DNA of 21,615 bases from Candidatus Nanohaloarchaea archaeon (GTDB taxonomy: Archaea; Nanohalarchaeota; Nanosalinia; Nanosalinales; Nanosalinaceae): the NCBI GenBank assembly GCA_046539225.1, contig JBKHHG010000011.1, positions 1-21,615 on the forward strand, in the 5' to 3' direction. Each line of letters begins with the position of its first letter. Position 1 is the stretch's first letter. Below the pieces are notes generated by a model. It had not been told where the DNA came from. It made no database searches and worked only from the letters and a program-made list of their open reading frames with translations. The position numbers and the translations under genes are program-made. Positions 29 to 21,507 of this stretch are shown piece by piece.

Positions 29-1621
29 CTATAGTTGCTCCGGGTTGTAGTCGGCTTGAACCATTGCCTGAATCTTGTTTTCTATCTCGTCTTCGTCTCC
101 GGCTTCCGCGAGCTGTGCTATCGCCGGCCCCATCTCTTTCGCGTAACTTGTCAGCTGGCGTTTCTTCTTCTCCTGGATTTCTTTCCTCTCCTTCCTGCCG
201 ATGTATCTTCCAAGCTTTCTTCCTGCTTCCTGGAGAGCTAACTTCATCTCTTTCCTGATCGGGTCGTAGTTCGCGACCGCCTCCTTTCCTTCAGAGGTGA
301 AAGGCACCCATACAGAGGCAATATGCACCAGGATGTAGAGAGGGCCTTGAGGCCTTCCTCCGGTCTGGCTGATGTTGTAACGGTTCCATGAGACTTCTTC
401 GATCGCCTTTGTAGTTACGCAGCTCGACTTCTTGTAGAGGAGGGGGACCTTGTTCGCGAAACGCAGCTCTTCAAAGCTTCCATCGTCCTCGATGTCGCCG
501 CCCCATGCAAGGCCTACCTCGATCTGGAAAGGATTCCCTTTGTAGACTGTCGGGCTTCTGGTGATCGCGGTCGAGAACTCTGGATTCAGCTCTTTCTTCA
601 GGCCTTTCAGCACAAGATCTTCGCCAATCGGTGAGAGGCAGTCGGTCGGCGGGCTCTGAAGCTTCACGTTCTGAGCTGCTTTAAGCAGTGTCTCTATCTC
701 GTCTTTATCCATTGTGTTAGGCCTGCGGCCTGTGTCGAGGCCTGCTTCGTCGCATATTTCTTCTGCCGAGGTTCTTCCGACCCTGGTGAACTCGTTCTGG
801 AGGAAAGATGTGATTGTTCTCGCTGAGGAGTTCTCTATCATCCTCATCATGACTCCGAGCTCGACGCCATGTGGATGCGGCTTGATCTCCTTCGGCTCGG
901 GCGGAAGCTCTCTACTTACTCTTGGAAACTCTACCTTGTTTCCATCCGGTTCCCTCAGGACTACACGGGCGTACGGGTTCATGATTGCTGTATGTTTCAG
1001 GTAGTTGTAGACTGAGTGGTGTCCTCCTGTGTATTTCGCCTCGATATCCATCTCGATCGTGGTACCGTGGTCAAAGTAGTAATCCTTGTCGCCAGGGAAT
1101 TCATCGCTTTCCGGGTCAATAACCTCGTCTTCTATAATATTTGGTTCGTTGGTCTCGGTATCGATAGTCACGACGAACTTGTGGCAGGCCTCGCCCTCCA
1201 TCTTGGAGTAGACCGTTACAGGTTCTCCCGTAGTTAATTGAGCGTACATAGCGGAAGCAGAAATACCTATTCCCTGTTGGCCTCTCGACTGCTGAAGCTT
1301 GTGGAACTTTGAACCGTACAGAAGCTTCCCAAACACTTTTGGAATTGTTTCGCGGTCGAGGCCTATTGCGTTGTCCCGGATCTCTACCCTGCACTTGTCC
1401 TCTCCGATCTCATCGATGAGGACATGCACTTCGGGAAGTATCTGGTCCTGCTCGCATGCGTCAAGCGAGTTGTCGACCGCCTCCTTTACAACTGTTATTA
1501 TGGATTTCTGCGCGTTTTCGAATCCGAGGAGGTGCTTGTTCTTCTCAAAGAACTCCGCCACCGAGATCTCCTGGTGGTCGCCGCCCTCCTGCTCTATTCC
1601 ATCTTCAATTCCGTTCGGCAT
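29..1621 (-). CDS. top6B: DNA topoisomerase VI subunit B
   Basis: GHKL ATPase motifs (VKEAVDNSLDA, DNAIG, FGKLLYGSKF, SRGQQGIGIS), H2TH region, RFANKVPL and WVPFTSEGKE. Start set at ATG 1621 behind a GGTGA RBS; the ORF track starts at GTG 1633. Confidence 0.97.
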   Translation of the reverse strand: MPNGIEDGIEQEGGDHQEISVAEFFEKNKHLLGFENAQKSIITVVKEAVDNSLDACEQDQILPEVHVLIDEIGEDKCRVEIRDNAIGLDRETIPKVFGKLLYGSKFHKLQQSRGQQGIGISASAMYAQLTTGEPVTVYSKMEGEACHKFVVTIDTETNEPNIIEDEVIDPESDEFPGDKDYYFDHGTTIEMDIEAKYTGGHHSVYNYLKHTAIMNPYARVVLREPDGNKVEFPRVSRELPPEPKEIKPHPHGVELGVMMRMIENSSARTITSFLQNEFTRVGRTSAEEICDEAGLDTGRRPNTMDKDEIETLLKAAQNVKLQSPPTDCLSPIGEDLVLKGLKKELNPEFSTAITRSPTVYKGNPFQIEVGLAWGGDIEDDGSFEELRFANKVPLLYKKSSCVTTKAIEEVSWNRYNISQTGGRPQGPLYILVHIASVWVPFTSEGKEAVANYDPIRKEMKLALQEAGRKLGRYIGRKERKEIQEKKKRQLTSYAKEMGPAIAQLAEAGDEDEIENKIQAMVQADYNPEQL

Positions 1622-1629
1622 TTTTTTGG

Positions 1630-2133
1630 TCACCTTCTGATCCGCGACTGATTTCTTTCCAGGTAGTCGTACGCGGTTGAATGAGATCTACCGTTCAAAA
1701 GCATCTTTACAGCCTCCTGAGCAACTTCAATGTTCTGTACATAACCTATAAACCCGGCGGTCTTCCCATAAACCGAGATATCTGTCTCGGTCATGTTCTC
1801 GATATGTTTCCTTGCTTCTCCATCCCTGCCGATCACACGGCCTTTCAAACGCTCCTGGCCATTCTGACTGTCGGCAAACTTCGAGATATCAAGATGGTGG
1901 AACTCGAATCCTTCCTCCACAAGCCTGAAGGCCTTCTCCGGGTTAAAACCTCGTCCTATAGCCTTCACCATCTTATGCGCGGTCATCTCCTCAAGAGGAT
2001 CTCCCTCAATCGTCACGTTGTTATCCTCTACTTCGACTGAACAGCCTGTGTCTTCCTCGATTCTCTGCTTGGTCTCTCCGCCTTCACCGATCAAGACCGC
2101 GACACGTTCCTCAGGTATCCTGACTTCTCTCAT
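1630..2133 (-). CDS. KH-domain pre-rRNA processing protein (Dim2/Pno1/Krr1 family)
   Basis: Two KH GxxG loops (LIGEGGETK, VIGRDGEAR), AIGRGF, and a C-terminal GRSHSTAYDYL. Likely start MREVRIP. Sits between RIO1 and top6B as in the conserved cluster. Confidence 0.93.
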   Translation of the reverse strand: MREVRIPEERVAVLIGEGGETKQRIEEDTGCSVEVEDNNVTIEGDPLEEMTAHKMVKAIGRGFNPEKAFRLVEEGFEFHHLDISKFADSQNGQERLKGRVIGRDGEARKHIENMTETDISVYGKTAGFIGYVQNIEVAQEAVKMLLNGRSHSTAYDYLERNQSRIRR

Positions 2134-2197
2134 TGAATCCTTACAGTAAAGTTTAACGGAGCCAACCTTTTTATACCTTGGAAACCGAATACAGGCC

Positions 2198-2956
2198 TTA
2201 ACGCCCCGGAATAACACTATTTAAAGCCTTTTCTACATCCCGGTCCGCGCCTTCAGAATTGAAAAACTTTACAACATTCTCAACATCCCGCCTCAAAAGC
2301 TGCAAGGCCTCAGGATGCGACTCATGTACGCCCTGCGAAAAATCGATCCAGACCAGTTCATCCCCTTCAACCAGGATATTGTACTCCGAGAGATCGCCGT
2401 GCACCAGCTTTTCCTTCCTCCACAAGGCCTCTATCTTCTCCAGAACCTGATCCAAGGCCTGGGAAGGATTTTCAATACTGACCTCCTTCAGCTTGGGGTA
2501 AGGCCTGAACTCTTCCCCCACAAACTCCATGACCAGAACGTTCTCCTGCAAACCATAGACCTTGGGGCACCGCAGAACCTTAGAGGCCTTCTCCAGGTTC
2601 TTGAACTCTTTCTTCGCCCAGGCATCCACCACCGCTTTCCGATCCTTTTTCACGTTCCTGAACCTTTTATCTCCTCTAAGGTACTGGTGCATCTCCCTGA
2701 ATGCTCCAGCCCTCTTCATATAGATTTTTACAGCGGCGAGGCCTTCCCCGGTTTCCGCCAAAAGAATCGCCGACTCCTTGCCTGACTCGATTATACCATG
2801 CATCCTGTCGATAATATCCCGGTCAGCAAGCTTCAGCAATGCATCCATCGTATCGTCATCGAGAACGTTCTCGACAGCTTTCCGGGCCTCCGAAGAATCA
2901 AACATCTGCCTCTTCTTCTCCCTCCTCCTCGGATAAATCTCATCGTCTTCAACCAT
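2198..2956 (-). CDS. rio1: RIO1-family serine/threonine kinase
   Basis: SGKES, AVKIY, WAKKEFKNL, LVHGDLSEYNIL and IDFSQ motifs. Confidence 0.95.
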   Translation of the reverse strand: MVEDDEIYPRRREKKRQMFDSSEARKAVENVLDDDTMDALLKLADRDIIDRMHGIIESGKESAILLAETGEGLAAVKIYMKRAGAFREMHQYLRGDKRFRNVKKDRKAVVDAWAKKEFKNLEKASKVLRCPKVYGLQENVLVMEFVGEEFRPYPKLKEVSIENPSQALDQVLEKIEALWRKEKLVHGDLSEYNILVEGDELVWIDFSQGVHESHPEALQLLRRDVENVVKFFNSEGADRDVEKALNSVIPGR

Positions 2957-2996
2957 ACAGAAAATCAATCAGGCCTGAAAACTATAACTCTGATGT

Positions 2997-3308: not shown

Positions 3309-3347
3309 GTAAAGTATAACCCTCTGAAGCTTTTTAAACTCTCGAAC

Positions 3348-4019: not shown

Positions 4020-4051
4020 AAACAACTGAAAGAGTTAGAAGTTTTTAACTC

Positions 4052-4954: not shown

Positions 4955-5006
4955 ACAGCCAAACCGAGGCCTCGAACCTTAAGTAGTTTTCACAGCGTGA
5001 CAACAG

Positions 5007-5827: not shown

Positions 5828-5840
5828 AACTAACCATAGA

Positions 5841-5859: not shown

Positions 5860-5906
5860 CTGCCAACGCTACATCCCCATCTCAGGACAAGGCAGTAAGA
5901 ACTGAC

Positions 5907-6367: not shown

Positions 6368-6622
6368 ATGGGAGATATTGCTTGTGTATACAAGGTAATG
6401 CCGGAGGACGAATCCACCGACCTTGAAGAAATCAAAAACCAGTTGAGAGAGCTTCTTGACGTCGATGACATAGGAGAGGAAGAAGTCGCCTTCGGACTGA
6501 AAGCTGTAAAGGTTTCATGCGTAACAACCGATGAAGAAGGCGGAACCGACGCGGTAGAAGAAAAACTTGAACAGCTGGAAGACGTCCAGAGCTACGAGCT
6601 CGAGCACTTCGACAAGCTTTAA
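6368..6622 (+). CDS. ef1b: Elongation factor 1-beta (aEF-1beta)
   Basis: KVMPE...DLEE, EEVAFGLKA, EEGGTDAVEE motifs and an AGGTG RBS. Confidence 0.95.
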   Translation: MGDIACVYKVMPEDESTDLEEIKNQLRELLDVDDIGEEEVAFGLKAVKVSCVTTDEEGGTDAVEEKLEQLEDVQSYELEHFDKL

Positions 6623-6652
6623 GGCCTAAACTTCAGGCCTCAAAAATTTATT

Positions 6653-9062: not shown

Positions 9063-10499
9063 ATGAAGAATCTTCTCGTTATAATCGATGGCTTAGGCCT
9101 TAGAGAGGAAAAACAGGGAAACGCGTTTGAACAGGGAGAGACCCCGAACATCGACTCTTTGATGCAGGATTACGGTTTCCAGGAGTTGAAGGCCTCAGGC
9201 CCTGCTGTAGGCCTTCCGGAAGGTTTTACAGGTAACTCGGAGGTTGGCCACCTTCATATCGGTGCGGGCAGGGTCGTGCCTCAACGCCTTACCAGGATTG
9301 AAAACGCCATCGAGAGCAACGAGCTTGAAGAGCTGGAATCCGTCAAGCAGGCCTTTCAGAGGGCGGAGGAGAAAAACTCTACAGTCCACCTCGCGGGAAT
9401 TATCTCGGATGGAGGCATCCACGGCCACATAGATCACCTGAAGGCCTTGATGGAGATAGCTTCTGATTACGATGTCGAGGTGGAGATCCACTGCTTCACT
9501 GATGGTAGAGACGTTGATCCCAAGTCCGCGGAAAAGTTTATTGAAGAGATCGAGGAATGGGGGAAGGAGTATGGGGGAAGCATCGCCACGGTGATGGGCA
9601 GGTTCTACTCCATGGATCGCGACCATAACTGGGAACGAACGCATAAGGCCTATGATGCAATGGCTCACGGAGAAGGATTCGAGTTTGAAGATCCGAGAGA
9701 GGCAGTTGAAAAGGCCTACAGCAACGGCGAGTACGACTACTTCATACAGCCGTCCTCAAGAAAAAACTTTGAAGGCATGGAAGATGAAGATGAACTGGTT
9801 TTCTACAACTACCGGGCGGACAGAGAGAGGCAGATCGCCGAGGCCTTTCTCAAGCCCGGGTTCTCGGAGTTTGATAATCCGGTGAGGCCTGAGTTTACCT
9901 CGATGTTCAGGTACAGGCAGGACTTTGAAAACCCTGTAATATTTGGAAAACAGGAGGTCGAGAACACATTGGGCGAAAAAATCGCGGAGAAAGGCCTTAC
10001 ACAGTTAAGGGTTGCGGAGTCCCAGAAGAAGCCGCATGTCACCTACTTCTTCAACGGCCAGCGCGAGCTGAAGTTTGAGGGAGAGGAGAGAAAGTTCATT
10101 GAGTCCGACAAGATAAAGGCCTACGATGAGAAACCGGAGATGCACGCCGAAGAAATCACTGATATAGTGCTTGAAGCTGTAGAGAAAGGTGAAAAAGACT
10201 TTATCCTTCTCAACTATGCTAACTGCGACCTTGTAGGGCATACCGGTGACCTTGAAGCAGCGATCACCGCGATCGAGACAGTGGATAAACAGATCGGAAA
10301 GTTAAGAGAAGCGGTTGAGGCCTCCGAATACGACCTGATCGTGACTTCCGATCATGGCAACTGCGAAGACATGGGAACTGAAGAAGAACCCAATACCTCA
10401 CACACACTGAACAAAGTACCTCTGATTGCGGAAGAACCGGTTGAGATGGAAGGCCTCACAGATATAGAGCAGCAGGTCTCAAAAATACTTTTCGATTAG
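9063..10499 (+). CDS. gpmI: 2,3-bisphosphoglycerate-independent phosphoglycerate mutase (bacterial-type iPGM)
   Basis: IIDGLG, GNSEVGH, SDGGIHGH, DGRD, GRFYSMDRD, NYRADR, HVTYFFNG, NYANCDLVGHTG and TSDHGN. Likely start MKNLLV at 9063. Confidence 0.95.
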   Translation: MKNLLVIIDGLGLREEKQGNAFEQGETPNIDSLMQDYGFQELKASGPAVGLPEGFTGNSEVGHLHIGAGRVVPQRLTRIENAIESNELEELESVKQAFQRAEEKNSTVHLAGIISDGGIHGHIDHLKALMEIASDYDVEVEIHCFTDGRDVDPKSAEKFIEEIEEWGKEYGGSIATVMGRFYSMDRDHNWERTHKAYDAMAHGEGFEFEDPREAVEKAYSNGEYDYFIQPSSRKNFEGMEDEDELVFYNYRADRERQIAEAFLKPGFSEFDNPVRPEFTSMFRYRQDFENPVIFGKQEVENTLGEKIAEKGLTQLRVAESQKKPHVTYFFNGQRELKFEGEERKFIESDKIKAYDEKPEMHAEEITDIVLEAVEKGEKDFILLNYANCDLVGHTGDLEAAITAIETVDKQIGKLREAVEASEYDLIVTSDHGNCEDMGTEEEPNTSHTLNKVPLIAEEPVEMEGLTDIEQQVSKILFD

Positions 10500-10501: not shown

Positions 10502-10807
10502 TTATGGAGCACTACAGTCAGAGACACATTTCATCTCTCCGGTAGAGGTAGGGCATGGTTCTTTATCGGGGCCACAGCTTATTGAGCCGTCTTCAGAGGT
10601 GAAGGGCTCGCCCGTGACTTCTTGACAGTTGTTGGCGTAGTACTCTTCCTGGTTGCTTCCCTGGTAGAGCTGGCACTGAGAACTATTGGTCTGGCCTCCG
10701 ATCACCTCGTCGAAGCTGGAGGCCTCGGAGCTGACCATGTAAGCCGCGATAGAGGCGATGGCGATGATGACCGCGGCCGCCACCACCATCTCAAGCATCT
10801 TGTCCAT
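10502..10807 (-). CDS. Pilin-like Cys-rich protein with an N-terminal hydrophobic helix and no obvious class III leader
   Basis: MDKMLEMVVAAAVIIAIASIAAYMV followed by a polar domain with 6 Cys. Directly downstream of a pilin gene. Confidence 0.65.
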   Translation of the reverse strand: MDKMLEMVVAAAVIIAIASIAAYMVSSEASSFDEVIGGQTNSSQCQLYQGSNQEEYYANNCQEVTGEPFTSEDGSISCGPDKEPCPTSTGEMKCVSDCSAP

Positions 10808-10809
10808 CT

Positions 10810-11154
10810 TTAGCTCCCGCTTGTATCGGTGCCTGAATCTACAGTGCTTCCGTCTCCTATTGCCTCACATCTCATACTGTCTACGTCTCCATACTCTTTG
10901 GCGTCCTGTATTACTTCTTCTTCACCCTCTGCATCGGTTGTTTTGCATGCACTGGGGGTAGATACTGATGTTGCTCCGTCTGCGCAGGCTGCTTCAAGCG
11001 CTGCCTCGCAGCCTTGGATATTCGCATCGCCTCCGAAGTCTATTATTCCGGCGAGGCCTTCGTCCAGCATGAATACGAGTGATAGTGCTGCGATCATTAG
11101 AACGGATGCTGCGATTATAAGGTATAGTATCTGTGACAGGCCTTTCTGTTTCAT
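10810..11154 (-). CDS. Type IV pilin with class III signal peptide, candidate major pilin
   Basis: MKQKG/LSQILYLIIAASVLMIAALSLVF, 4 Cys, and its own strong TATA box. Confidence 0.8.
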   Translation of the reverse strand: MKQKGLSQILYLIIAASVLMIAALSLVFMLDEGLAGIIDFGGDANIQGCEAALEAACADGATSVSTPSACKTTDAEGEEEVIQDAKEYGDVDSMRCEAIGDGSTVDSGTDTSGS

Positions 11155-11176
11155 ACTGTTTTGTTGGAGCTGCGGG

Positions 11177-11190
11177 TATAAAAAGTCTTT
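11177..11190 (-). promoter_or_regulatory. BRE/TATA (AAAGAC-TTTTTATA) of the pilin gene
   Basis: TATA lies 23-30 nt upstream of ATG 11154, consistent with a leaderless transcript. Confidence 0.65.
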
Positions 11191-11221
11191 CAAGAAGGAA
11201 AGGAAAGGGTATGCAGGGGTT

Positions 11222-11506
11222 TCAGGCCTTGGTGAGGTCGATCTGGATGCTTGAGACGTTGAGCTGGTCGCCTTCGTCTGTTTCGATCTCGTCTGTGCCG
11301 ATTGTGATGTCTTCGACTTCGGCTTCTTCGATGAACCGGTCTTTCACTATTTCTGCCACGTCTACGGCCCTTGAGATTGCTTTCCCTCTTGCTTTTACGT
11401 GTACTGTTTCGTGGTCTTCGCTGAACTGGGTTACGACCGCGAGTACATAGCTCATTGCTGGTTTGGATCCGACATATACTGTATTGTCGTCTTCTTGTTC
11501 TGCCAC
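11222..11506 (-). CDS. albA: DNA/RNA-binding protein Alba
   Basis: [31 protein letters not shown] and NVSSIQI motifs. GTG start with AGGTGA RBS. Confidence 0.95.
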
Positions 11507-11530
11507 TGGTAAGTCACCTGTACCTGACTG

Positions 11531-11549
11531 AGGCCTGAATTAATAAATT
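11531..11549 (-). promoter_or_regulatory. Promoter element AATTTATTAATTCAGGCCT, copy 2 (alba promoter)
   Basis: Identical to 5841-5859. Confidence 0.7.
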
Positions 11550-11550
11550 G

Positions 11551-12663
11551 TTACTGGAACTCGTGGCTGAACGGCTTTATCTGGAACTCCAGCCTCCTGA
11601 AGCTGTCTCCGGATAAAACACTGTATCTCTGGTCTTTCAGTCTCCAGTTGATATCTGTGTTTTCAGGGGTTACGGTCACTCGTGTGTATTTGTAGGTCTT
11701 GTTCTCTTTGTCTTCGTCGCTGCAGTTGGCGCAGCAGTCTCCTTCCCAGAGAGTTGAACTCGAACTTGCGTTCAAAATCTCGGATTCGTGGCCGTATTTG
11801 AAGGTGGCGTCTGCATCTGTCTCGAGTTCTTCTATGCTGAGGCCTTCTCTTGAAGGATACTTGGACTTTACTTCCTCTATTTTCTCCTCTACAGAGGCCT
11901 CAACTTCTTCCGCGGCTTCTTCTTCGACGCTGGACTTTGAAGGGTACGATCCACAGCTTCTCTGCTCATCGGTTTCTTCTGTGACGGTGTTAAGCTCCTG
12001 TTTCAGTTCTTTGAAGAATTTCAGGCTTTCATCCGCGAGCTGGACGTACCTGTTGTCTTTTGCCTCGGTCTCCGCCGAGTAGAAAAGCGCTTCGTCCTGG
12101 TACTGGCTTTCCTGGCCTCCAAAGCTGCAAGTCGTTGTCAAAGGCTCGGGGAGCATCGGAGCAAGAGGATCGTCTATGGAGTGAGAATGTATTCGACTGA
12201 CTGATACCTCTGTGTCTTTGGCTTCAAGGTCTTCAAACTCTGCCACATCTTTTTCCGGGTGTAGAACGGCCTGGTAGTAAGAGCTTGGTATCCTGCAGTT
12301 GCCTGTTGAACCTGAAACCGTGGATGTCAGGTTTCTGCTTGAGGCCTGGTTGAGGTTCTCGATGATGTCCTGCATGTTTGAGCTGTAGTCGCCGAGCCAG
12401 GAGCTTGTCCATTCTACTCCGCCCCCGTTCTGGCCGAGGCTGTAGGATGCGTTGTTGGCTGCGAACTGGGATGCGAGAGGCACATGGTTGTAGAAGTAGA
12501 AGTCTGAGTACGCTCTTGTATCAACGGTTCTCTTGAGGTCCTGTGTTGTCTCCCCCACGACTTCGTTCATCGCATCCGAGATCGGGATTGACTGGGTCGC
12601 CAGCACCAGTGACATCACAAGCAGCCCCATCATCGGCAGCGAACCCTCGAGAGAGGCCTTCAT
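11551..12663 (-). CDS. Large pilin-like secreted protein (370 aa)
   Basis: MKA/SLEGSLPMMGLLVMSLVLA class III-like N-terminus, ATGA overlap with the upstream gene, several Cys. Confidence 0.7.
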   Translation of the reverse strand: MKASLEGSLPMMGLLVMSLVLATQSIPISDAMNEVVGETTQDLKRTVDTRAYSDFYFYNHVPLASQFAANNASYSLGQNGGGVEWTSSWLGDYSSNMQDIIENLNQASSRNLTSTVSGSTGNCRIPSSYYQAVLHPEKDVAEFEDLEAKDTEVSVSRIHSHSIDDPLAPMLPEPLTTTCSFGGQESQYQDEALFYSAETEAKDNRYVQLADESLKFFKELKQELNTVTEETDEQRSCGSYPSKSSVEEEAAEEVEASVEEKIEEVKSKYPSREGLSIEELETDADATFKYGHESEILNASSSSTLWEGDCCANCSDEDKENKTYKYTRVTVTPENTDINWRLKDQRYSVLSGDSFRRLEFQIKPFSHEFQ

Positions 12664-13229
12664 TCTACCTGGAACACCCCTCCTGAGCCTTTGACCCACA
12701 TCTGGATTTTGCCGGTCCTGTTGCCGCTTAACTGGAGCGGAACCTCGATCGATGACCATGAGCCGCCTCTGTCGTCTATGTTCTCCACTTCAATATGTCT
12801 TTCGTTGTAGGTGATGTTTAAAGCGTGGTCGGAGGCCTCTGGCACGTTCAGAAAGTGCTGCCGCATCTTGTAGCTGTAGTAGGTCTCCAGGTCTGCTTTC
12901 ACTTGTTGGCGGCCGTAGGATTCATTTGCTATACGGATTTCGTCATCGGTGGAGAGATAGTAGGATGTAAGCTCTACAGCCTTCAGGTCGTCGTATCTCT
13001 CGTCTACTCCATGGGCCCGCCACACGTTATCGTTCAGCATAACTGTCAGCGAAGCTCTCTGTCTTATAGAGTCCATGTTCTGCTCGACGCTGCCTTCCGC
13101 GGTTTCCTGGAATTCTGTGGCGTCCGTTCCTGATAAAAGGAAGAAGATAGCCAGCGAGAGAAAGATAGTGAGGGAGAACACCACTATCTCTCCTATCACT
13201 CCCTGGGCCTTAACTGATCTTGTAGACAT
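12660..13229 (-). CDS. Pilin-like protein with class III signal peptide
   Basis: N-terminus MSTRSVKA/QGVIGEIVVFSLTIFLSLAIFFLL. Confidence 0.75.
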   Translation of the reverse strand: MSTRSVKAQGVIGEIVVFSLTIFLSLAIFFLLSGTDATEFQETAEGSVEQNMDSIRQRASLTVMLNDNVWRAHGVDERYDDLKAVELTSYYLSTDDEIRIANESYGRQQVKADLETYYSYKMRQHFLNVPEASDHALNITYNERHIEVENIDDRGGSWSSIEVPLQLSGNRTGKIQMWVKGSGGVFQVE

Positions 13230-13716
13230 GGACTCTGACCTCCAGAGGAGGATTATCTCCTCTAATCAGGAGCGCAGGACTTGAAACGCTGTCGCTCAGG
13301 TCTCCTCTTTTACAGTCAAGGCTTTCAGGGTTTGAAGCATGCATATTCGGGTTTTCAGCGGTTGTAACCGCCAGTCCAAAGTTCTGGCCGTCAAGCTCCG
13401 GTATTTCCTCGATGTAGCAGTGGCCTCCAGTTTTCTTGTAGCCTATTTCGCCGCTTTCAGGGTCTTTATTCGTGAATACTTCTTGGGGTATTATTGCTCT
13501 CCGTCTGTCGTAGTCGTAGCCTGCCTCGTCCGAACCGGCGTCATAGTTCAGCACTCTTTCAAGCAGTATGGCCTTTCTGTAGGCCTCTTGAGAGGTTACA
13601 TCTATATCGGTGCTGAGATCCTGGAGGCCTCCGACGTAGAGCTGGAGGATTATAACTGTTCCTATTCCCAGCATCACCACGTAAGGTATCTTGGTTATAA
13701 TGTTGTAGAGATCCAA
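13210..13716 (-). CDS. Pilin-like or membrane-anchored protein (TTG start)
   Basis: GGAGG RBS, N-terminal hydrophobic helix IPYVVMLGIGTVIILQLYV, 2 Cys, located inside the pilin operon. Confidence 0.65.
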   Translation of the reverse strand: MDLYNIITKIPYVVMLGIGTVIILQLYVGGLQDLSTDIDVTSQEAYRKAILLERVLNYDAGSDEAGYDYDRRRAIIPQEVFTNKDPESGEIGYKKTGGHCYIEEIPELDGQNFGLAVTTAENPNMHASNPESLDCKRGDLSDSVSSPALLIRGDNPPLEVRVHVYKIS

Positions 13717-13717
13717 G

Positions 13718-14119
13718 TCAGCAACCTCCGCTTGAAAAATTCAATGCCTTTTCGTCTGAAACCGGTTTTTTGGATATGCATAGGCCTTCCATCTCTGTAT
13801 AGTTTTCAGGCCCTATAATCTGTTCTGCGGTTACTGATCCTCTGATGTCCACAGAGTGGTTTTTATCCCGGTAGGAGAGCCGGAACTCTTCTCCGTCGAT
13901 CCTGTACTCGTAGTCCTGGAGATCCAGCTCAAGATGTCCCTGTGGAAGGCTGTCGACCGCCATGGCGGCGTTCTTCACTCTATCGGTCTGGGCGTCCGCT
14001 ACCTCTTGCTTGATAAAGTCCTGAGTGAAGCCCTGGCTTCCGTACGCAACTCCCATGATCAGCAGGAATGTCAGGCCTGCCTCAGCCATCGTGAAAGGAT
14101 AGGATGTCTGCGCCTTCAC
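13718..14119 (-). CDS. Pilin-like protein with class III signal peptide
   Basis: MKA/QTSYPFTMAEAGLTFLLIMGVAY, GTGA overlap with the upstream gene, C-terminal Cys pair. Confidence 0.72.
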   Translation of the reverse strand: MKAQTSYPFTMAEAGLTFLLIMGVAYGSQGFTQDFIKQEVADAQTDRVKNAAMAVDSLPQGHLELDLQDYEYRIDGEEFRLSYRDKNHSVDIRGSVTAEQIIGPENYTEMEGLCISKKPVSDEKALNFSSGGC

Positions 14120-14541
14120 TGGAACTCCACCTTTATCTCACCGTTTTCCTCCCCGATCGATACCTCATACTCGCCTATAGGCACGTCCCTGTCAGCCTCA
14201 AAATCTGCCTCAAAGTTTAGCGGATGGTCGCATTCAATGTTGAACTCTCTCTCCTCTCCTTTAGGGTTGTAGACAAGGCTTTTAGAATCTTCATCTATGT
14301 CAAGGCCTGAGTTTCTCAGGTCCAGGTCTGTCGAAGTACTGTACTGTAGTTCGTCCAGGTCCTCGAGTTTCTCACACTCTGTCTCGATCTCGTTTATCAG
14401 CGAGTTAACCTGTTTATCGTCGCTGTGAGTCGAAGCAGATCCCCCGAACTCGTTTACCTGCTGGGCTGCTATCCCGAGCACCAGTGTCGCCACCAAGGCT
14501 CCTATCAAAATGGTTATCGGGGAGCTCTCATCCACCTTCAT
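14116..14541 (-). CDS. Pilin-like or membrane-anchored protein
   Basis: SPITILIGALVATLVLGIAA hydrophobic N-terminus and 2 Cys. Exact start uncertain (14544, 14541 or 14535). Confidence 0.65.
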   Translation of the reverse strand: MKVDESSPITILIGALVATLVLGIAAQQVNEFGGSASTHSDDKQVNSLINEIETECEKLEDLDELQYSTSTDLDLRNSGLDIDEDSKSLVYNPKGEEREFNIECDHPLNFEADFEADRDVPIGEYEVSIGEENGEIKVEFQ

Positions 14542-14737
14542 CACCTTCCTCGCTGAAAAGGCTGCATTCTTCTTCTGAATCGCTGAGTATCCCTCCCATA
14601 CATCCAGAGAAAAATCCTGATGTATCCTTCACTTCTTCTCCACCGCTGTCAAAAACTGTTTCTGTCGCGGTGTAGACCCCGGCGATTACCGTCAATGCTA
14701 TCATTAAAACAATTACGACAGTGATAGAAAGCCTCAA
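14528..14737 (-). CDS. Small pilin-like protein (69 aa, TTG start)
   Basis: MRLSITVVIVLMIALTVIAGVY with a Cys pair. TTGA overlap with the upstream micro-ORF stop. Confidence 0.7.
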   Translation of the reverse strand: MRLSITVVIVLMIALTVIAGVYTATETVFDSGGEEVKDTSGFFSGCMGGILSDSEEECSLFSEEGDEGG

Positions 14738-14889
14738 TTCATACCACCTGTGGAGAAGTTCATATTGGCGAGTGCGAACTCTTTAAGGCCTGAAATGTTC
14801 CCTGTTAAAAGAGCCAGAATTATTCCTGCTACAATTAGGCCTACAGCAACCATTACCACAAAGCTCAGCGACAGTTCCAGGCCTTTCAC
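14734..14889 (-). CDS. Micro-pilin, 51 aa (not in ORF track)
   Basis: GTG start; MKG/LELSLSFVVMVAVGLIVAGIILALLTGNISGLKEFALANMNFSTGGMN. Confidence 0.8.
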   Translation of the reverse strand: MKGLELSLSFVVMVAVGLIVAGIILALLTGNISGLKEFALANMNFSTGGMN

Positions 14890-14922
14890 ATTCCCTACTT
14901 TCGAGGCCTCGTTGAAATAGGT

Positions 14923-15075
14923 TTACGGTGAAGAGAACTCAAAGTTGCTCAGGAACTGTTCCACTATAGAAGAGGTCCAGGACTCAAAGCTCATGTACAT
15001 CAGCACAATAATCATGATCCCCAGGGCTATCATCGCCATAGTCCTGATGGAAAGCATGGCTTTTTCCCTTCTCAT
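14923..15075 (-). CDS. Micro-pilin, 50 aa (not in ORF track)
   Basis: MRREKA/MLSIRTMAMIALGIMIIVLMYMSFESWTSSIVEQFLSNFEFSSP. Confidence 0.78.
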   Translation of the reverse strand: MRREKAMLSIRTMAMIALGIMIIVLMYMSFESWTSSIVEQFLSNFEFSSP

Positions 15076-15107
15076 ATCTGAAGTCTGCGGCTTCAGGTGT
15101 TAAAATA

Positions 15108-16718
15108 TTACTCCTTATCTGTTATCTCTACCTTCTTGATCTCAAGTTCGGGAGCATTTTCACTTATCCAAGATTCAAATACCAGTCTCCGGAAATCCTG
15201 TGACTCCTTGGAGAAAGACCATTTTTCTTCTCCACCTTCTCTAACAGACCATCCAGTCTCTCCTTCCGATCGTTCAAGAACCACGGTAAAGTCGCTGTTC
15301 AAAGGGTAGTCGTATTCTGTGTCAAAATCGTCATTCGAATTGAATCTCCACAGATGCTCGTTTCCGAACCTATCGGTGTTCAGGCCGCTGATTGTATCTG
15401 ATTTCCCCTCTCCGGCATCTCTTTGAGCATCTATTTGAAGGTGACCTCTATCAATAAAGTTCAGCGTTATCTCTATTGTTTTTTCTCCTTCAGGCAGGGG
15501 CTCCCATACAATGTAGTCACTAAAGTGGGGGGAGCGATTAGGTTCGAATTCGATACTTGAACCCGTCTTATTTATTACGTTGGAGTTATCTCCTGTTGCC
15601 TCTTTGGAGGGTTCTGTTGTGACATCGCCTTCTAAAGCGTCCTCTTCTATATCCAGATCTCCGCATGCCGGCTGTTCAACTTTTTCCACTACTATAATCG
15701 GGTAGAGAGGTTCATCGCTCGAGTGTCCGTGGCCGTCCGGGTATCCCCGGCTTCCCTGTACGTATCCCTCGTCGCCGGGACAGAGATTTACTCTCAAGTT
15801 GAGCTCGCTGATGTCAATATTTGAATCAGTATCGTATTCGTCCCCGATCGCTTCAAGATTTGTGCGGGCGTCAATATCAACATTCTGATCCTTGAAGTAT
15901 ATTACAGGCCTTTCGATCTGGGTGCCTTTCCTGTTCTCATCGTCGAACCAGGTGTTTCCTATCTCGTCAACTACATTTATCCCTACATCAATGCCTAACA
16001 TGCCTGCAGCACATACCCGGCAGACCGTTCCGGCAGCGACAGCCTCTTTCAATCCAGGTCTAAGATCGTTTAAGCTCGTTCCGCCTTCAGCTGCCCTTAT
16101 CGCCTCCGAGGCCTTTTCAGGGGTTGTAGGCACTACGTTTACCAGGTTTTCGTCAAGCCAGTACCTGCCGTTATTTTCCCTTCCTCCAATGGTTATAGCA
16201 TCTTTCTCAAGGTCTTCAGGCACTTTGAACTTTTGCCGGGAGTAGATACCAGGCATAAAGTTTTCGTCAGGAGTGTCCCCAACAAAGTTTGTGAAGTCTC
16301 TTAACCCGCTTCCAGGTATCAGGCCTCCAGGGTCTCTCACCGCTCCGGCTTCACCTCCGAAACAGGTGGGGTGCTGGGTAAGGGGCTGCGTTCCTTTGAG
16401 GCCTGGGTAGCCCCAGCCATCGGCTTCGAAGTCTCCATCAGTTCTTACAGCGTTGAAGGGTTTCTGGCCGTCGTTGACGTTGTTTACGACTGTGCAGCCG
16501 TCGTTAAGCGCTCTGTCCCGGACGAACAGCGTCAGGTCGTTTAAAGTCTTTGCGTCTTCTATCTCTGTGGTCTGATCGGTGTACTGGTTGATGTCGGTAA
16601 AGCTCTGCTGCAGGGCCTGGCCGAGGGAGCCTATACTGCTCATTGAGATGAATAGGGAGGCGACCATTATCGCAAGGACGAGTTTGATGATCGCCCCGAT
16701 TCCTATACCTTTCAGCAT
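15108..16718 (-). CDS. Large pilin-like adhesin candidate (536 aa)
   Basis: MLKG/IGIGAIIKLVLAIMVASLF, then a large Gly/Asp-rich domain with several Cys and a beta-rich C-terminus. Confidence 0.72.
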   Translation of the reverse strand: MLKGIGIGAIIKLVLAIMVASLFISMSSIGSLGQALQQSFTDINQYTDQTTEIEDAKTLNDLTLFVRDRALNDGCTVVNNVNDGQKPFNAVRTDGDFEADGWGYPGLKGTQPLTQHPTCFGGEAGAVRDPGGLIPGSGLRDFTNFVGDTPDENFMPGIYSRQKFKVPEDLEKDAITIGGRENNGRYWLDENLVNVVPTTPEKASEAIRAAEGGTSLNDLRPGLKEAVAAGTVCRVCAAGMLGIDVGINVVDEIGNTWFDDENRKGTQIERPVIYFKDQNVDIDARTNLEAIGDEYDTDSNIDISELNLRVNLCPGDEGYVQGSRGYPDGHGHSSDEPLYPIIVVEKVEQPACGDLDIEEDALEGDVTTEPSKEATGDNSNVINKTGSSIEFEPNRSPHFSDYIVWEPLPEGEKTIEITLNFIDRGHLQIDAQRDAGEGKSDTISGLNTDRFGNEHLWRFNSNDDFDTEYDYPLNSDFTVVLERSEGETGWSVREGGEEKWSFSKESQDFRRLVFESWISENAPELEIKKVEITDKE

Positions 16719-16906
16719 ATTGATCTACCTGTTACATCAGCAAGTATTGAGCCAATGTTTCTTAAAAGGCCTACGCAGCTTGCTGCGTCGTCTGTTCCTA
16801 TTATGGCCGGGAGGAAAAGCGCGAGGAAAAGCGTGGCTATTGCTATGGCCATGACGAGGCCTATCATTATGTTTATGGTTTTGCTGGAGGTTCCTTTCGG
16901 TTTCAC
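16712..16906 (-). CDS. Small pilin, 64 aa
   Basis: MKPKG/TSSKTINIMIGLVMAIAIATLFLALFL with a Cys pair. Confidence 0.75.
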   Translation of the reverse strand: MKPKGTSSKTINIMIGLVMAIAIATLFLALFLPAIIGTDDAASCVGLLRNIGSILADVTGRSIC

Positions 16907-16940
16907 TGTTACTGTGTTGTCAATCGTTTAATTTAATGAT

Positions 16941-17075
16941 TTAGTCCGCCGCTGTTCCGAGCGCGTTTATGACTGCGTCTCTCAGTATGGATTCTGCGAC
17001 GAAGTAGACAGTTGCGGCAGCGAGAGCAGCCACGATTATAAGGATGAGGTGCTTCGTTGAGAACTCGGCTTTCAT
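16941..17075 (-). CDS. Micro-pilin, 44 aa (not in ORF track)
   Basis: MKA/EFSTKHLILIIVAALAAATVYFVAESILRDAVINALGTAAD. ATGA overlap with the platform gene and a GGTGAGG RBS. Confidence 0.8.
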   Translation of the reverse strand: MKAEFSTKHLILIIVAALAAATVYFVAESILRDAVINALGTAAD

Positions 17076-19243
17076 ATTCCCTCACCTACTCCTGTGACTA
17101 TTCCTCCGAACAGCATACTTATAATCAGCACTGTTATGGCGTAGAAGAACATTCCGGAGAGGAGTATCTTCCCTGTGAACATGTATTTGAAGGTCTGGTC
17201 GTCTCCTCTCGTGATTTTCATGTAGAAAGTTCCGAGTATGTAGAGCAGCTGGATCAGATATATGCCTACAACAAGCTGGAGAAGCTCTGGAGGTATCGCG
17301 TTACCAAGGTTTCCGATTATAGAGCCGTCGAGGCCTGCTGAGCTTTCTGCCCCGGATGGGAGCTGGGACTGGCTTTCCTGGAAGCTCTGTGAGAGCTCGA
17401 AAAGGCCTGAAATTATTGTCTGCGACATCCCGACCGCGACCCCGGATACTATCGGTGCAAGCATGTATGCCAGCATCTGGATTGTGGTGGTTGTGTCCTC
17501 CATCAGGTCGTTGAGCTGTTCCTGTGTCTTGTGGATGTTTTTCAGGTACCGGGATATTGTCATCATTGCGGTGGCGGCCATCTCCGTGCCTTTCTCAGAT
17601 GATTCGAGCACGGCCTTCATCACTGTATGAATCATCTGGCTTGGAAACTCTCTCAGCGCTCCGTAGTCCGGGTCAAATATGGCGTCTTCAAACGTCATTC
17701 CCATCTCCTCTATGTTCCGGGATGAAAGCTCAAAGAGCTCAGATATCTCGAGGTCCTGAGTAGACTCCGTAGCCTCTTTCAATGAAAGTTCTATAGGTGT
17801 GCCGCCTGAAATCTTGTTTCCAAGCTCGAATAAGGCGGTGGGGAACTCAGACTCTATTTCTTTAAGTTTTTCCTCGGTTTTCAACCTTTCAAAGTTGCCA
17901 AGTATTAATGTTGCTCCGATTCCGAAGCCTGTTCCAAGTACTATAAGCAGGGAGCGCATCAGCATCGGAAGCGGCGCCAGAGATTCTCCTTCTGTGAATA
18001 CGTAGGGAGCTGAGGCCGCGAGTTCTTCTCCTGCCATAGGGTAGAAGTGAGGGAAGGATATGTATCCTATTATACCTGGCAGGGCCAGAACTGAGAAGAC
18101 TGCGAGGCCTACAGGCCAGGAGGGTAGCCTAAATTTTTTGTCCATCAAGGTCAGCGAGAACTTCCATCTGTCCGGCAGTGATTCCGTGTCCGCCGGTTTT
18201 GTACTGACTGTTGGAGGCCTCGAGCTCAGGGTTCTCTGCATGAACCACCAGAGGAAGGCCGGCAGCATAAGGTTGAACAGGATGAAGAGATGCAGCGGGG
18301 TTATAACTCCTCCGAGGAATGCGGAGATTAATGGCAGCATTATCATGCCGAGTACCGGGAGCAGGGCGCCTACTGCGTTCAGAATCATTACAGGCGTTTC
18401 CAGTGACTGGGCGTAATGCTTCATCTTTTCCTGTGTCCCGTCCAGAATATTGTCTATGGCGTCCTGAAGCAGTCTTTCCTGTCTGTCTGTATCTGGCTGG
18501 TTTGTAGCTGCTCTTAACAGGTTTAAAGACTCGAGAAAGTCTTTATTGTAGTTTTTCCACCTTTCAGTATAGTTCTCGAGCGCATCATCTATTCTCTTGT
18601 ATTCTCCGACTTCCAGGCTCCATAAAACTTCTTTGAGGTCTTTTGCGATCGGGCCTTCAAGGTTTAAAGCCGCGAAACGTACTGCTCCCTCCAGGTTGGG
18701 CGATGAACGCATGTATACTACCATGTAGAGTATTGAGAGTATCATTTCTCCACTGCTCTTTATCACTTTGTTTTTGGCGGCGTAGACCGGCTTGTAAAAG
18801 GTGTAGAGGCCTGCAGCGACAGGTACAGATACGAGAATTAACATGAGGGATGTAGGGATTATGCCGCCGCTGGAGCCGAGAGCAGATCCAAGCGATAGGT
18901 TCATTACGAAAAGAGATATCCATCCGATGAAACCGGCTATAAATGCTCCTGCAGTGGCTGAAAGCACCATTCCGGGCGTGATCTCCCATCCGAGAAGGTT
19001 GATCGCAGGGTTTAGCTTTTGCTTTGTTGATTCGCCTGCTTTCAGGCTGAGCAGCGATGACATCTGGTAGCAGAACTTTTCGTATGAAGTTCTTTTCCTG
19101 GCCTCGGCTTCCTCTTTTTTGTACTGCTGGTATCGGCGTGAGAAGCTTTCGCGTGAAGAACTGTTGTTGTAAGGCGGCATCTCGATGTCCTTGTCTATCT
19201 CCTCGAGTATATCGTCCAGACGTTTTTCCTGGTCTTCATCCAT
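17072..19243 (-). CDS. Type II secretion system F-family membrane platform protein (PilC/TadB-TadC/ArlJ-like, two T2SSF domains)
   Basis: Multiple TM helices and two T2SSF-like segments (YMVVYMRSSPNLEGAV; EFPTALFELGNKISGGTPIELSL). Follows the secretion ATPase. Confidence 0.85.
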   Translation of the reverse strand: MDEDQEKRLDDILEEIDKDIEMPPYNNSSSRESFSRRYQQYKKEEAEARKRTSYEKFCYQMSSLLSLKAGESTKQKLNPAINLLGWEITPGMVLSATAGAFIAGFIGWISLFVMNLSLGSALGSSGGIIPTSLMLILVSVPVAAGLYTFYKPVYAAKNKVIKSSGEMILSILYMVVYMRSSPNLEGAVRFAALNLEGPIAKDLKEVLWSLEVGEYKRIDDALENYTERWKNYNKDFLESLNLLRAATNQPDTDRQERLLQDAIDNILDGTQEKMKHYAQSLETPVMILNAVGALLPVLGMIMLPLISAFLGGVITPLHLFILFNLMLPAFLWWFMQRTLSSRPPTVSTKPADTESLPDRWKFSLTLMDKKFRLPSWPVGLAVFSVLALPGIIGYISFPHFYPMAGEELAASAPYVFTEGESLAPLPMLMRSLLIVLGTGFGIGATLILGNFERLKTEEKLKEIESEFPTALFELGNKISGGTPIELSLKEATESTQDLEISELFELSSRNIEEMGMTFEDAIFDPDYGALREFPSQMIHTVMKAVLESSEKGTEMAATAMMTISRYLKNIHKTQEQLNDLMEDTTTTIQMLAYMLAPIVSGVAVGMSQTIISGLFELSQSFQESQSQLPSGAESSAGLDGSIIGNLGNAIPPELLQLVVGIYLIQLLYILGTFYMKITRGDDQTFKYMFTGKILLSGMFFYAITVLIISMLFGGIVTGVGEGI

Positions 19244-19254
19244 TCTGCGCCACC

Positions 19255-21507
19255 TTATACTTGCTGGTCAAGCCATTCCCTCCAGCGGTTCATTATCCTC
19301 GCTCTTTGCTGCTCTCCGTATTCGTCGACTACCTGCTTCGATAGGAGGTGGAACTTCTGGTTTGCCTCTACAACTTTCTCCGCTTCAAGCAGTTCAGGCC
19401 TGTCTTCTTCCCGGGCCTTCTCCACTATAGCTTCCTTCATCTCCTTTCTCATCTCGACATTGTCCCAGACTGCCTGCCAGTTGTTCTTCCATTCACGGAC
19501 GTTTTCCGCGATACGGTTCATTATCTCGGATTCGCCGTTAAGGAGCGTGTCAGTAGGCACGAGCTCGTCTTTCTCACTATCGTAACGCATTAAATCCACG
19601 AACGCATTTTCCTCGAGAGGATCATCGGTCCACTCCTTTCTAACCTCTGTTATTCCTGTTACGCGGCGGTATTCCTCCATTCCATCAGGGCTTTTAATCT
19701 TGTTTACACTGACAACAATGTCCGTGGCTTTAAAGCTTGTTGTAGGTACTCCGAGATCGTTTACAACCCTGTCGAAAACGGAGTAGGCGTCTTCCCCGTG
19801 GATGGTGCCGCCGACAAAGTTTGCGACCGCTCCAACCCTCATAGCTTCGTATAGGGCCTGGGCCTCGTCGCTTCTGACTTCTCCGACCACAAGGGCGGAG
19901 TCACCCATTCTCAGCGAGGTTCTGATGGCTTCATCGGCTTCAAGCTCGTTTTCCACCTGTGTAATAACAGAACGGGACTTCATACGCTCGACGTTGTATC
20001 CCAGGTCTCTCATCTGAGGGATCGGAAGCTCTAACGTGTCTTCGACCGTTACGATCCTGTGGTTTTTCATTATCTCCAGCATGGAGGCGGCGAGTAGCGA
20101 GGTCTTTCCGGCTCCACGTGTACCTGAGAAAAGCACCGATCTATTTCCGTCGACTATAAACGATAGGAGGCCTGCGCCAAACCCGTTTATCATATCGCTT
20201 TCTATGAAGAGAGGAAGGGTCCAGGCCCGGGAGCGATGCCTCCTGAAAGCAAATGCCAGGCCTTCAGGGCTGAGGTTTTCCTGTATGACCGCGACTCTTG
20301 CTCTTCCGCCTTTAACCTCTGTCTCTGTGTCGAGCACCGGGTTTGCCTCGTCCAGAGGCCTTCCTGACTGTATCCTGAACTGTGTGGCCCATGACTCTGC
20401 CTCGTCTTTTGTCGGTATCAGGTTGGTCTCGCACTCACCGTATTTTTCATGGGCTATGTAGATTGGAGAGGATCCGATAGGGGAGTTGACGAAGACGTCC
20501 TGGACCTGTGGATCCGCGAGCAGCAGCTCTAAAACCCCTAGGCCTGAAGTATACCTGTTCAGGATATGTCCCAGGGTTTCGAGTTCTTCGCTGCCGAGCT
20601 GAAAGTTCATCTGGTTTGCGATATCTCTAAGCATATCCCTGCCGATGTTTTCGAATACGTCCCGCATCCTCTCAGGTTCAGCGAACTCTCCCGAGTCAGG
20701 TTCGTGAGAGGCCATGAAACGCCTCGCTGCATCCAGCAAGTTGTATTTCTCCTCTGGCAGGTTGAACTCTGGGGGGTCGACGTGGTAGATAGGCCTTGTC
20801 TTGTTCGGGACCCGGTATACCGATACTTCTACATTGTTCCTGGAGTCGTACCTGTCGATCTCCTCGCCTCTCTCAGGGGGCAGGGACATGTACTTTGTAA
20901 GCATGAAGTTCGGTCTCACGAGAGGATGGAAGAACTCTCTGTATACCTCTCTGTCGCCGACATGGTGGCCGGTGATGTAGTCTGAGGCCTGTTCAATTAT
21001 CTCTGTGGATTCAAGCATATCCATTATCGGGTTCAGAACATCCTGTATAAAGTATTTCCGGCATCGGCTCTGCTGGGGATAGCTTTCGTCCATATCCTGC
21101 TCGAGATGCCTTTTCTTCCTCTTCAGTTCGACGTATGCCCCGACAGGGTCCTGTTTCAAAGTGCTGAAAACCGTCTCCTGTATATCGGGCAGTTCATCCT
21201 GGTAGAGCTGCTCGCATTTCTCTCCCGGACTCTGCGACAGCAGGCCTTGATTGGAGATGTCTTGGACTATCTGGGCCAGTTCCTTCAACAGTATTATCTG
21301 GTCCTCGTCGTACTCGTAGTCCCGGGATTCGGATAGAATAACTGAGGAAGCGTTAGGAACCTCCTGCAGAATATTGATGACACGGGCCATCACCTCGGGG
21401 TAATCCTCTATACTCGCTCCGTAGATGCTTCCAAGGGTGTTGATCCTTACAGTCCCTGTATCCTCCTCAAACTCATATTCGAATACGTCTTTGTCGTGTA
21501 TGTTCAT
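19255..21507 (-). CDS. Type II/IV secretion ATPase (PilB/TadA/ArlI-like)
   Basis: Walker A GTRGAGKT, Asp box TVEDTLEL, Walker B LVVGEVR, His box GTIHG, and a long N-terminal extension. Confidence 0.93.
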   Translation of the reverse strand: MNIHDKDVFEYEFEEDTGTVRINTLGSIYGASIEDYPEVMARVINILQEVPNASSVILSESRDYEYDEDQIILLKELAQIVQDISNQGLLSQSPGEKCEQLYQDELPDIQETVFSTLKQDPVGAYVELKRKKRHLEQDMDESYPQQSRCRKYFIQDVLNPIMDMLESTEIIEQASDYITGHHVGDREVYREFFHPLVRPNFMLTKYMSLPPERGEEIDRYDSRNNVEVSVYRVPNKTRPIYHVDPPEFNLPEEKYNLLDAARRFMASHEPDSGEFAEPERMRDVFENIGRDMLRDIANQMNFQLGSEELETLGHILNRYTSGLGVLELLLADPQVQDVFVNSPIGSSPIYIAHEKYGECETNLIPTKDEAESWATQFRIQSGRPLDEANPVLDTETEVKGGRARVAVIQENLSPEGLAFAFRRHRSRAWTLPLFIESDMINGFGAGLLSFIVDGNRSVLFSGTRGAGKTSLLAASMLEIMKNHRIVTVEDTLELPIPQMRDLGYNVERMKSRSVITQVENELEADEAIRTSLRMGDSALVVGEVRSDEAQALYEAMRVGAVANFVGGTIHGEDAYSVFDRVVNDLGVPTTSFKATDIVVSVNKIKSPDGMEEYRRVTGITEVRKEWTDDPLEENAFVDLMRYDSEKDELVPTDTLLNGESEIMNRIAENVREWKNNWQAVWDNVEMRKEMKEAIVEKAREEDRPELLEAEKVVEANQKFHLLSKQVVDEYGEQQRARIMNRWREWLDQQV

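Follow-up and report, generated by a model that had tools for sequence, protein, structure and literature searches.

A 21,615 nt contig of a Candidatus Nanohaloarchaea archaeon, referred to here as the window, contains exactly 102 copies of the palindrome AGGCCT between positions 350 and 21247. The window is contig C11 of genome G000 (606,781 bases in 38 contigs, 82 % complete), and in this genome AGGCCT is a genome-wide highly iterated palindrome (HIP). The force acting on the word is exerted at the DNA level, is palindromic, is blind to reading frame and to gene, is nearly all-or-none and rewrites amino acids. A conserved 159-aa winged-helix protein, encoded outside the window, is considered below as a candidate reader of the word.

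The exact count agrees with the approximately 102 sites given in an initial annotation of the window and corresponds to 4.7 sites per kb, compared with a mean of 6.63 sites (SD 2.68, maximum 17) in 100 dinucleotide shuffles. By this null the enrichment in the window is about 15-fold; the figure of about 20-fold in the annotation agrees with the genome-wide order-0 value. Genome G000 contains 2,850 sites (4.7 per kb), and the motif is not limited to the window contig, since all 38 contigs carry it, 36 of them at 3.5 per kb or more. The observed/expected ratio (O/E) in Markov models of order 0 to 4 was 20.25, 16.35, 5.9, 2.4 and 1.11, respectively, with the next-ranked palindromic hexamer at 2.5 at order 1. 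The annotation had named disappearance under a fourth-order model as a ground for giving up the enrichment and, as worded, the plain ratio of 1.11 amounts to such a disappearance. However, this plain test is circular because 5,700 of the 6,825 AGGCC 5-mers in the genome belong to AGGCCT itself. When the sites were cut from the training sequence, O/E was 13.9 at order 2, 16.2 at order 3 and about 15 at order 4 (5,700 observed, 372 expected), and the enrichment stays. A HIP is a palindrome over-represented at least 15-fold genome-wide, and AGGCCT stands at 16- to 20-fold at orders 0–1 and at 14- to 16-fold with its sites masked.

Of the 102 sites in the window, 91 are coding, nine lie in spacers and two extend across gene ends, according to a simple gene caller of our own. 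The coding sites occur in all three frames, read as RP (16), [KEQ]A-x (30) and x-GL (45), and 83 of the 99 synonymously compatible coding positions carry the word. This agrees with the annotation, which placed sites in housekeeping genes, pilin genes and spacers and in several codon frames. For the whole genome, genes were called by a simple hexamer model (714 genes, 91 % coding), and 2,545 coding sites were observed compared with 445±18 (maximum 487) in 50 within-gene shuffles of synonymous codons. By frame, the observed numbers were 445, 930 and 1,170 against 86, 180 and 180 after shuffling. Between 75 and 85 % of compatible positions are used. No frame lacks the excess, and pressure is seen at each of the six positions of the word across the three frames. 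Intergenic DNA contains a further 291 sites (5.4 per kb). The small number of sites left by a shuffle that preserves both protein and codons indicates that codon or amino-acid bias is unlikely as a cause, as had been argued in the annotation.

Effects on proteins were seen in 391 orthologues shared with genome G024, a relative that lacks the trait. At the 614 positions where both proteins allow AGGCCT, G000 uses 469 and G024 uses 15, a reference value that is biased low because G024 carries a HaeIII-like methylase and an NgoPII-family nuclease and restricts GGCC. Of the 1,336 sites in G000 orthologues, 867 sit where the G024 protein forbids the word, so that about 65 % needed amino-acid changes. 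Compatible positions private to G000 numbered 1,036 and those private to G024 306, compared with 783/654 and 573/456 for control hexamers. The corresponding peptides are over-represented in G000 (O/E 1.64 for RP, 1.44 for GL and 2.22 for [KEQ]A[FSYCW]) and not in G024 (0.80, 1.0 and 0.94). Among comparison loci, which overlap and are not independent, 53 negative loci use 33 of 566 compatible positions without asymmetry (286/281) and 31 positive loci use 272 of 374 (424/131). Under this force, the share of compatible positions that carry the word rises from about 6 % to about 75 %, which corresponds to odds about 40 times higher. Orthologous sites shared between genomes numbered 457, 389 and 265 against 424, 333 and 239 expected under independence, and control hexamers were also above expectation in some pairs. 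The DNA-level and frame-independent excess of sites supports the proposal of the annotation that AGGCCT is HIP-like and actively kept.

Deviation from the word is tolerated only as A-to-G or T-to-C at its outer positions. The resulting GGGCCT/AGGCCC is over-represented 2.1-fold in G000, 4.5-fold in G005 and 3.3-fold in G057, the latter two being further positive genomes, while inner one-base changes range from 0.6 to 1.1 at masked order 2. A T at −3 raises use of the word in all three genomes and a T at −1 is disfavoured, with no base fixed outside the hexamer (C, G and A are all common at −1). Close pairs in G000 are depleted against a null in which use was permuted among compatible positions, with 14 against 44.6 at 6–11 bp, 41 against 72.4 at 12–19 bp and 71 against 90.8 at 20–29 bp. 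The same short-range exclusion is present in G005 and G057, and it was not seen for 63 other palindromes. Helical phasing of the sites was considered and rejected, as the raw 10.25-bp signal (z 4.0) was reached by 14–22 of 100 sets of the compatible-position null. The symmetry of the word, the grading of its outer position and the saturation at about 30 bp point to a sequence-specific protein that has two-fold symmetry and covers about 30 bp of DNA.

Use of the word ranges from 0.64 to 0.84 across conservation classes (mostly 73–84 %) and is 0.74 in genes without a G024 homologue. It is even along the closed chromosome, with fairly even 20-kb and 50-kb bins of G005; HIP1 of cyanobacteria is marked by a chromosomal periodicity of 10–90 kb. 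Long AGGCCT-free gaps coincide with restriction loci, islands of low GC content and some very large genes, and also with two GC-rich stretches that contain few genes and are taken as rRNA. In a profile pooled over G000, G005 and G057, sites avoid the start codon and the region −36 to −27 from the ATG and are most frequent at −18 to −15 and immediately after stops; the dip and upstream peak come mostly from G000 and G005. They are consistent with leaderless promoters in which AGGCCT lies downstream of the TATA box and ahead of the start. Among 40 strain variants listed (of 177), none lies inside AGGCCT (about one expected), none destroys a site and one creates a site. Eleven of the 40 lie within 20 bp of a site, compared with 18 % of positions, and there is thus no depletion near sites. 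These variants are too few to separate mechanisms.

The trait was found in 12 of 70 genomes of the phylum at 2.0–4.7 sites per kb (densities per genome use rounded genome sizes), comprising genera g1, g7 and g19 and two of the six genomes of g2. Two of the remaining genomes are intermediate (0.95 and 0.69 per kb) and 56 have at most 0.58 per kb. Loci of two complete records, strain M3_22 (2.1 per kb) and Ca. Nanosalina sp. VS9-1 (4.5 per kb), are positive as well. A tree reconstructed from three genes of 30 genomes requires four changes of the trait. In approximately unbiased (AU) tests, a clade of positives only was rejected (p-AU 7e-6) and a clade of positives with G003 and G061 was kept (p-AU 0.063). 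One origin with later losses is compatible with this tree and stays open, and several independent gains, as read from a single-gene tree, are softened by it. At the seven negative loci closest to G005, the proteins bear no trace of an earlier presence of the trait (51 against 50), which leans towards gains. A viral scan detected no halophilic-looking (acidic) virus in the six most enriched of at least 80 loci with flanks. Two viral records, G070 (L317) and G071 (L302), are non-acidic phages with 39 AGGCCT in 27.5 kb and 55 in 27.9 kb and no TCCGGA, counts that are subject to ascertainment as the records were picked by a three-copy pattern. One ORF of G071, without a Pfam match, resembles a phage adenine methylase.

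The candidate reader is the conserved 159-aa protein encoded on the forward strand at G000:C17:2843-3319. When 402 orthologue triplets were ranked by how much closer positives are to each other than to G024, a histone came second and this protein fifth; the histone A gene (G000:C17:5222-5419) lies two to three genes away. At residue 92, the discovery alignment has Leu in 10 of 10 positive loci and Lys in 16 of 16 negative loci. Across the phylum, where the codon was read by a degenerate-pattern search (46 of 70 genomes matched, with two positives among the 24 without a match), Leu was found in nine of ten positives and Lys in 33 of 34 negatives, while of the intermediates G003 has Leu and G054 has Lys. 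Removal of the five discovery-set genomes leaves six of seven for Leu and 31 of 32 for Lys. In genus g2, Leu92 is found in the two positives and Lys92 in the three matched negatives. In 59 homologues, column 92 contains 49 Lys, nine Leu and one Gln within a nearly invariant segment, and no other column in the control scan that had more than five negatives was uniform both among positives and among negatives.

Gene trees with residue 92 masked were based on 20 rows, after removal of four near-duplicates and of rows in which a gene was missing, and with groups named after the alignment had been seen. Grouping of G005 with its negative congeners was rejected (p-AU 0.003) and grouping of the positives together was kept (p-AU 0.41). 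This pattern is reversed in the two flanking genes (RNase H-like and GrpE), with a support of 100 for the species grouping and a p-AU of 5e-15 for positives together. The change from Lys to Leu requires two base changes, and Leu92 occurs without AGGCCT at its codon in G003 and in two of the six positive metagenome loci read. Together with the masked tree, these observations argue against Leu92 as a pure effect of the force on the word.

An AlphaFold model of the protein (mean pLDDT 69; 80–89 over residues 41–110 and 86–89 around residue 92) predicts a helix-strand-helix-turn-helix-wing topology, with residue 92 in the turn ahead of helix 95–106. The model has the three-helix bundle and beta wing of a winged helix, which is a generic fold. 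In winged-helix folds, the residue position before the recognition helix reads bases. The top fold matches are all winged helices, namely TFIIE/TFE-alpha (Z 8.3 and 8.1) and Fur (Z 7.9). The candidate is like TFE-alpha/TFIIE-alpha, Fur and PadR (PDB 6xjf, 8byq, 2xig, 5x11) in topology (Z 7.9–8.3) but unlike them in sequence (8–10 % identity), and no sequence match was found in Pfam, NCBIfam or PDB. Atlas feature scores of 0.91 and 0.89 connect it with clusters of AF_0843 (PF27297), a family that the Pfam copy without a match may predate. The alignment with distant archaeal homologues extends over 130 columns (hhalign 96.6 %), and the related clusters are all archaeal.

It is probable that some non-methylating protein reads AGGCCT. 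The proposal that the Leu92 allele of the 159-aa protein is this reader falls somewhat short of an even chance. The account that we tentatively favour is that AGGCCT is kept by a chromatin-like binder of unmethylated sites, with sites winning by weak selection or by conversion bias. A chromatin or nucleoid binder of weak specificity would become an AGGCCT reader once Lys is replaced by Leu where the recognition helix begins, and the hydrophobic Leu side chain would recognise the thymine methyl group in the outer A:T pair. Every bound site would bring a small benefit, through chromatin packing or protection or by prevailing in gene conversion, and a further site within the same footprint would contribute little. 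Movement of the Leu92 allele between genera by recombination would produce the on/off pattern. The complete scheme, in which one switch makes the reader, the allele spreads by recombination and the genome and proteome of the recipient are rewritten to about one site per 200–500 bp, is possible but more doubtful. Among the roles offered by the annotation, chromosome organisation fits best, and it is one that we infer.

Several observations weigh against this account. The candidate was chosen post hoc. The closed genome G010, with 4.1 sites per kb, has Lys92, the negative G016, with 0.28 per kb, has Leu92, and G003 combines Leu92 with just 0.95 per kb; unless lags are assumed, Leu92 is therefore not strictly required and not enough on its own. 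The codons of G010 at this point match those of the negative G061 and differ from those of its congener G049. The context K-G-L is compatible with AGGCCT, and all nine Leu positives read AGGCCT there, so that Leu92 could be a product of the force. In control columns, 18 of 4,063 pass a loose filter and one of 917 passes in a balanced set of 30 genomes, and one other discriminating column is clearly site-driven. The trees are short (SH-aLRT 82–87) and Leu arises on more than one branch. The association of residue 92 with the trait (Fisher P=1.4e-7) is overstated, as kin are not independent. A Foldseek search gave no match at E≤0.001, and a Z of about 8 names no family. The 10.25-bp phasing signal vanished, and the peak 15–18 bp upstream of the ATG is where a stably bound protein might hinder initiation.

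A gene screen covered 91 candidates common to positives and missing or diverged in G024, of which those not named below were judged by family only. It rests on one whole negative, G024, with the negative G021 covered to 20 kb and G057 to 740 of 916 kb; soluble proteins private to one genome number 171 in G005 and 200 in G024. Eleven candidates, gained genes or variants, were rejected on their distribution. A Toprim/DnaG-like gene is present in 36 of 50 genomes, most negatives included, NucS/EndoMS in 46 of 50 family genomes and an AlkA-like glycosylase in ten of 50, only three of them positive, and ThiI is present in negatives. A SWIM protein is absent from G022 and present in G061, and a PolB2-like polymerase has no close copy in G022 and is present in G061. 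A small HTH protein, a coiled-coil protein and a Cdc6 paralogue were each found in five of five genomes and a 181-aa ORF in none of five. The RadA type was discarded because the g19 positives have the other type. Histones have no positive-specific paralogue, and histone A alleles lean with the trait, with no residue splitting the groups.

Three side observations were made on these genes. The Cdc6 paralogue lies directly upstream of a patchy second family-B polymerase cluster (G000:C22:2921-7384; G005:C1:685001-689336). RadA of family f1 occurs as two types (64–67 % and 76–90 % identity to G005), and the type in G054 is lacking in its three congeners, which suggests that RadA has been replaced in G054. 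Histone A of G005 and G060 is nearer to positives of other genera (91–95 %) than to most negative congeners (84–91 %; L461-L472, L381-L409).

The rival that survives best, although we consider it unlikely, is a neutral ratchet in which a bias of repair or gene conversion favours AGGCCT at mismatches without any benefit and Leu92 is a by-product. Use of the word that is blind to gene class and overrides amino acids is consistent with a ratchet, as are the nine of nine Leu codons in positives that are AGGCCT, the Lys of the positive G010 and the wide occurrence of NucS/EndoMS. Elhai's model predicts saturation near existing sites, which fits the 30-bp exclusion if the patch is short (PMC4390886). 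However, none of the repair genes examined tracked the trait and variants are not depleted near sites. The pressure on all six positions in three frames also counts against a ratchet, as do the need for two substitutions to get from Lys to Leu in a column that does not otherwise vary and a gene tree that tracks the trait even with the residue masked.

The annotation had also offered a self-DNA uptake signal, which finds little support. Such a signal would tag the DNA of kin for uptake or recombination, and molecular drive would fill the genome. A search of five closed genomes, of which three are positive, was made for DprA but not for ComEC or Ced and found no DprA. Core genes are not favoured, and among the 91 scanned candidates, few of which were tested across genomes, none that is a transport gene tracked the trait. 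The coincidence of long site-free gaps with low-GC islands and restriction loci speaks for a signal, and so do the presumed pilin-like genes in the window. The cyanobacterial palindrome HIP1 (GCGATCGC) aids transformation and correlates with pilus and secretion genes (PMC13756078), but this effect is methylation-dependent and no shared methyltransferase was found in the positives. On balance, an uptake signal is improbable.

Still less probable is methylation of the HIP1 type, in which a GGCC/AGGCCT methyltransferase, perhaps of an unrecognised fold or supplied by a host, directs repair. This was the coupling of methylation to repair suggested in the annotation, and the results go against it. 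No cognate methyltransferase common to positives was found with two Pfam families and a motif scan, a search that an unrecognised fold could escape. The C5 family (PF00145) was found in one of 12 positives and in none of the four single-contig positives; the sole member (L010:98-2728 in G004) is at a contig end beside a gene which we take to be an McrB-like ATPase. The N4/N6 family (PF01555) passed the cut-off in two of 12 positives and was not found in G000, G005 or G010. Both methyltransferases that the motif scan detected in the closed G005 lie within islands poor in AGGCCT; for G000, and for the 740 of 916 kb of G057 that were covered, it detected none. GGCC restriction-modification was found only in two negatives, G024 and G020, which rank among the AGGCCT-poorest genomes, and the NgoPII-family nuclease occurs in two of 50 genomes, both negative. 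In G024 (L002:1456-3375) and in G020 a HaeIII-like C5 methylase adjoins this nuclease, and the system of G024 accompanies avoidance (GGCC O/E 0.36). The cognate enzymes and avoidance that mark a type II restriction site were not seen in positives. The incompleteness of G000 leaves some room for methylation, and the GGCC core with a graded outer position resembles HIP1 deviations (PMC4390886). A bacterial AGGCCT methyltransferase exists, but Alcanivorax, which methylates AGGCCT, has 1,674 sites only (PMC12128166). A GDGCHC methylome is reported for nanohaloarchaea, and GGCC does not feature in the available main texts (PMC10266531, PMC11001535).

Despite the plain order-4 ratio of 1.11, codon or amino-acid bias or an assembly artefact can safely be dismissed in view of the synonymous shuffles, the density in spacers, the 469 against 15 shared compatible positions, the near-identical contigs that cover the window in two public runs from a single study (the source of the window may be among them) and the eleven other genomes with the trait.

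Within the window, the gene at 29..1621 (reverse strand), presumably that of the topoisomerase VI B subunit, is a conserved housekeeping gene and phylogenetic marker with seven sites in all three frames. In G014, G054, G055 and G067, the topoisomerase VI B match is split in open frames of 1,112–1,626 aa, probably due to inteins. The most site-rich gene of the window (9063..10499, forward strand), which we take to encode cofactor-independent phosphoglycerate mutase, has 13 sites in 1.4 kb. Intergenic sites are present at 2971..2976 and at 4967, 5841, 6273, 6635, 6679, 9042, 11531 and 14904, and such sites in spacers indicate that the word needs no reading frame. A close pair of sites 13 bp apart (6622..6640) is of the rare kind, with pairs of less than 30 bp depleted genome-wide. 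A strain variant at 13745 in a contig of public run X2 makes an extra AGGCCT (13740..13750). A third public run, X3, contains next to none of the window. The cluster at 10502..21507 (reverse strand), presumably of short pilin-like genes, a TadC-like membrane protein and a secretion ATPase, has a word density like that of other genes and is no special target of AGGCCT. The tetramer CTAG is nearly gone from G000 (133 sites, O/E 0.06–0.14), compared with O/E of 0.68 in G005, 0.74 in G057 and 0.96 in G024.

Even without the link to a protein, AGGCCT is, for some of the nanohaloarchaea, a strong signature for binning and host prediction, and trees built from their proteins are biased by it. If the link is true, a DNA-binding protein reshapes a whole genome and proteome, a methylation-independent iterated palindrome is caused by one residue of one chromatin-like protein, and a first function is obtained for an archaeal winged-helix family. 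The literature searched, the coverage of which excluded supplementary oligomer tables, yielded no description of an AGGCCT repeat in archaea or of the 159-aa protein.

The uptake sequences of Neisseria and Pasteurellaceae are non-palindromic 9–12-mers tied to competence and enriched in core maintenance genes. AGGCCT is like them in occurring at least about once per kb, in rewriting codons and proteins and in being missing from foreign islands. It is unlike them in being palindromic, in that DprA was not found and in that core genes are not favoured. With HIP1 it shares dispersal as a palindrome over genes and spacers, an over-representation of at least 15-fold and patchy loss in relatives (PMC4390886, PMC5861425, PMC13756078), as well as one-base deviations biased to outer positions. 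It differs in being another 6-mer, in being archaeal, in its density of 4.7 per kb compared with 0.2–2.73 per kb for HIP1 in cyanobacteria (PMC5861425), in having no shared cognate methyltransferase found, in its exclusion over about 30 bp and in its candidate winged-helix reader. The HIP1 core CGATCG has an O/E of 0.86 in G000. Alternate HIPs are closer in sequence, as CAGGCCTG of Synechococcus sp. PCC 6312 (0.37 per kb, O/E 14.72; PMC5861425) contains AGGCCT, and both this and GGCGCC of Calothrix PCC 7103 (PMC4390886) are GC-rich palindromes of sporadic distribution. However, these are cyanobacterial and linked to methyltransferase targets in the papers, whereas AGGCCT is more than 10-fold denser and has no fixed flanking base. 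For HIP1 itself, three decades of work have not settled the cause (PMC13756078). AGGCCT is a real archaeal HIP-like palindrome, distinct from HIP1 and with a testable cause, in a system that is denser than HIP1, switches on and off within one genus and comes with a named protein and a single residue.

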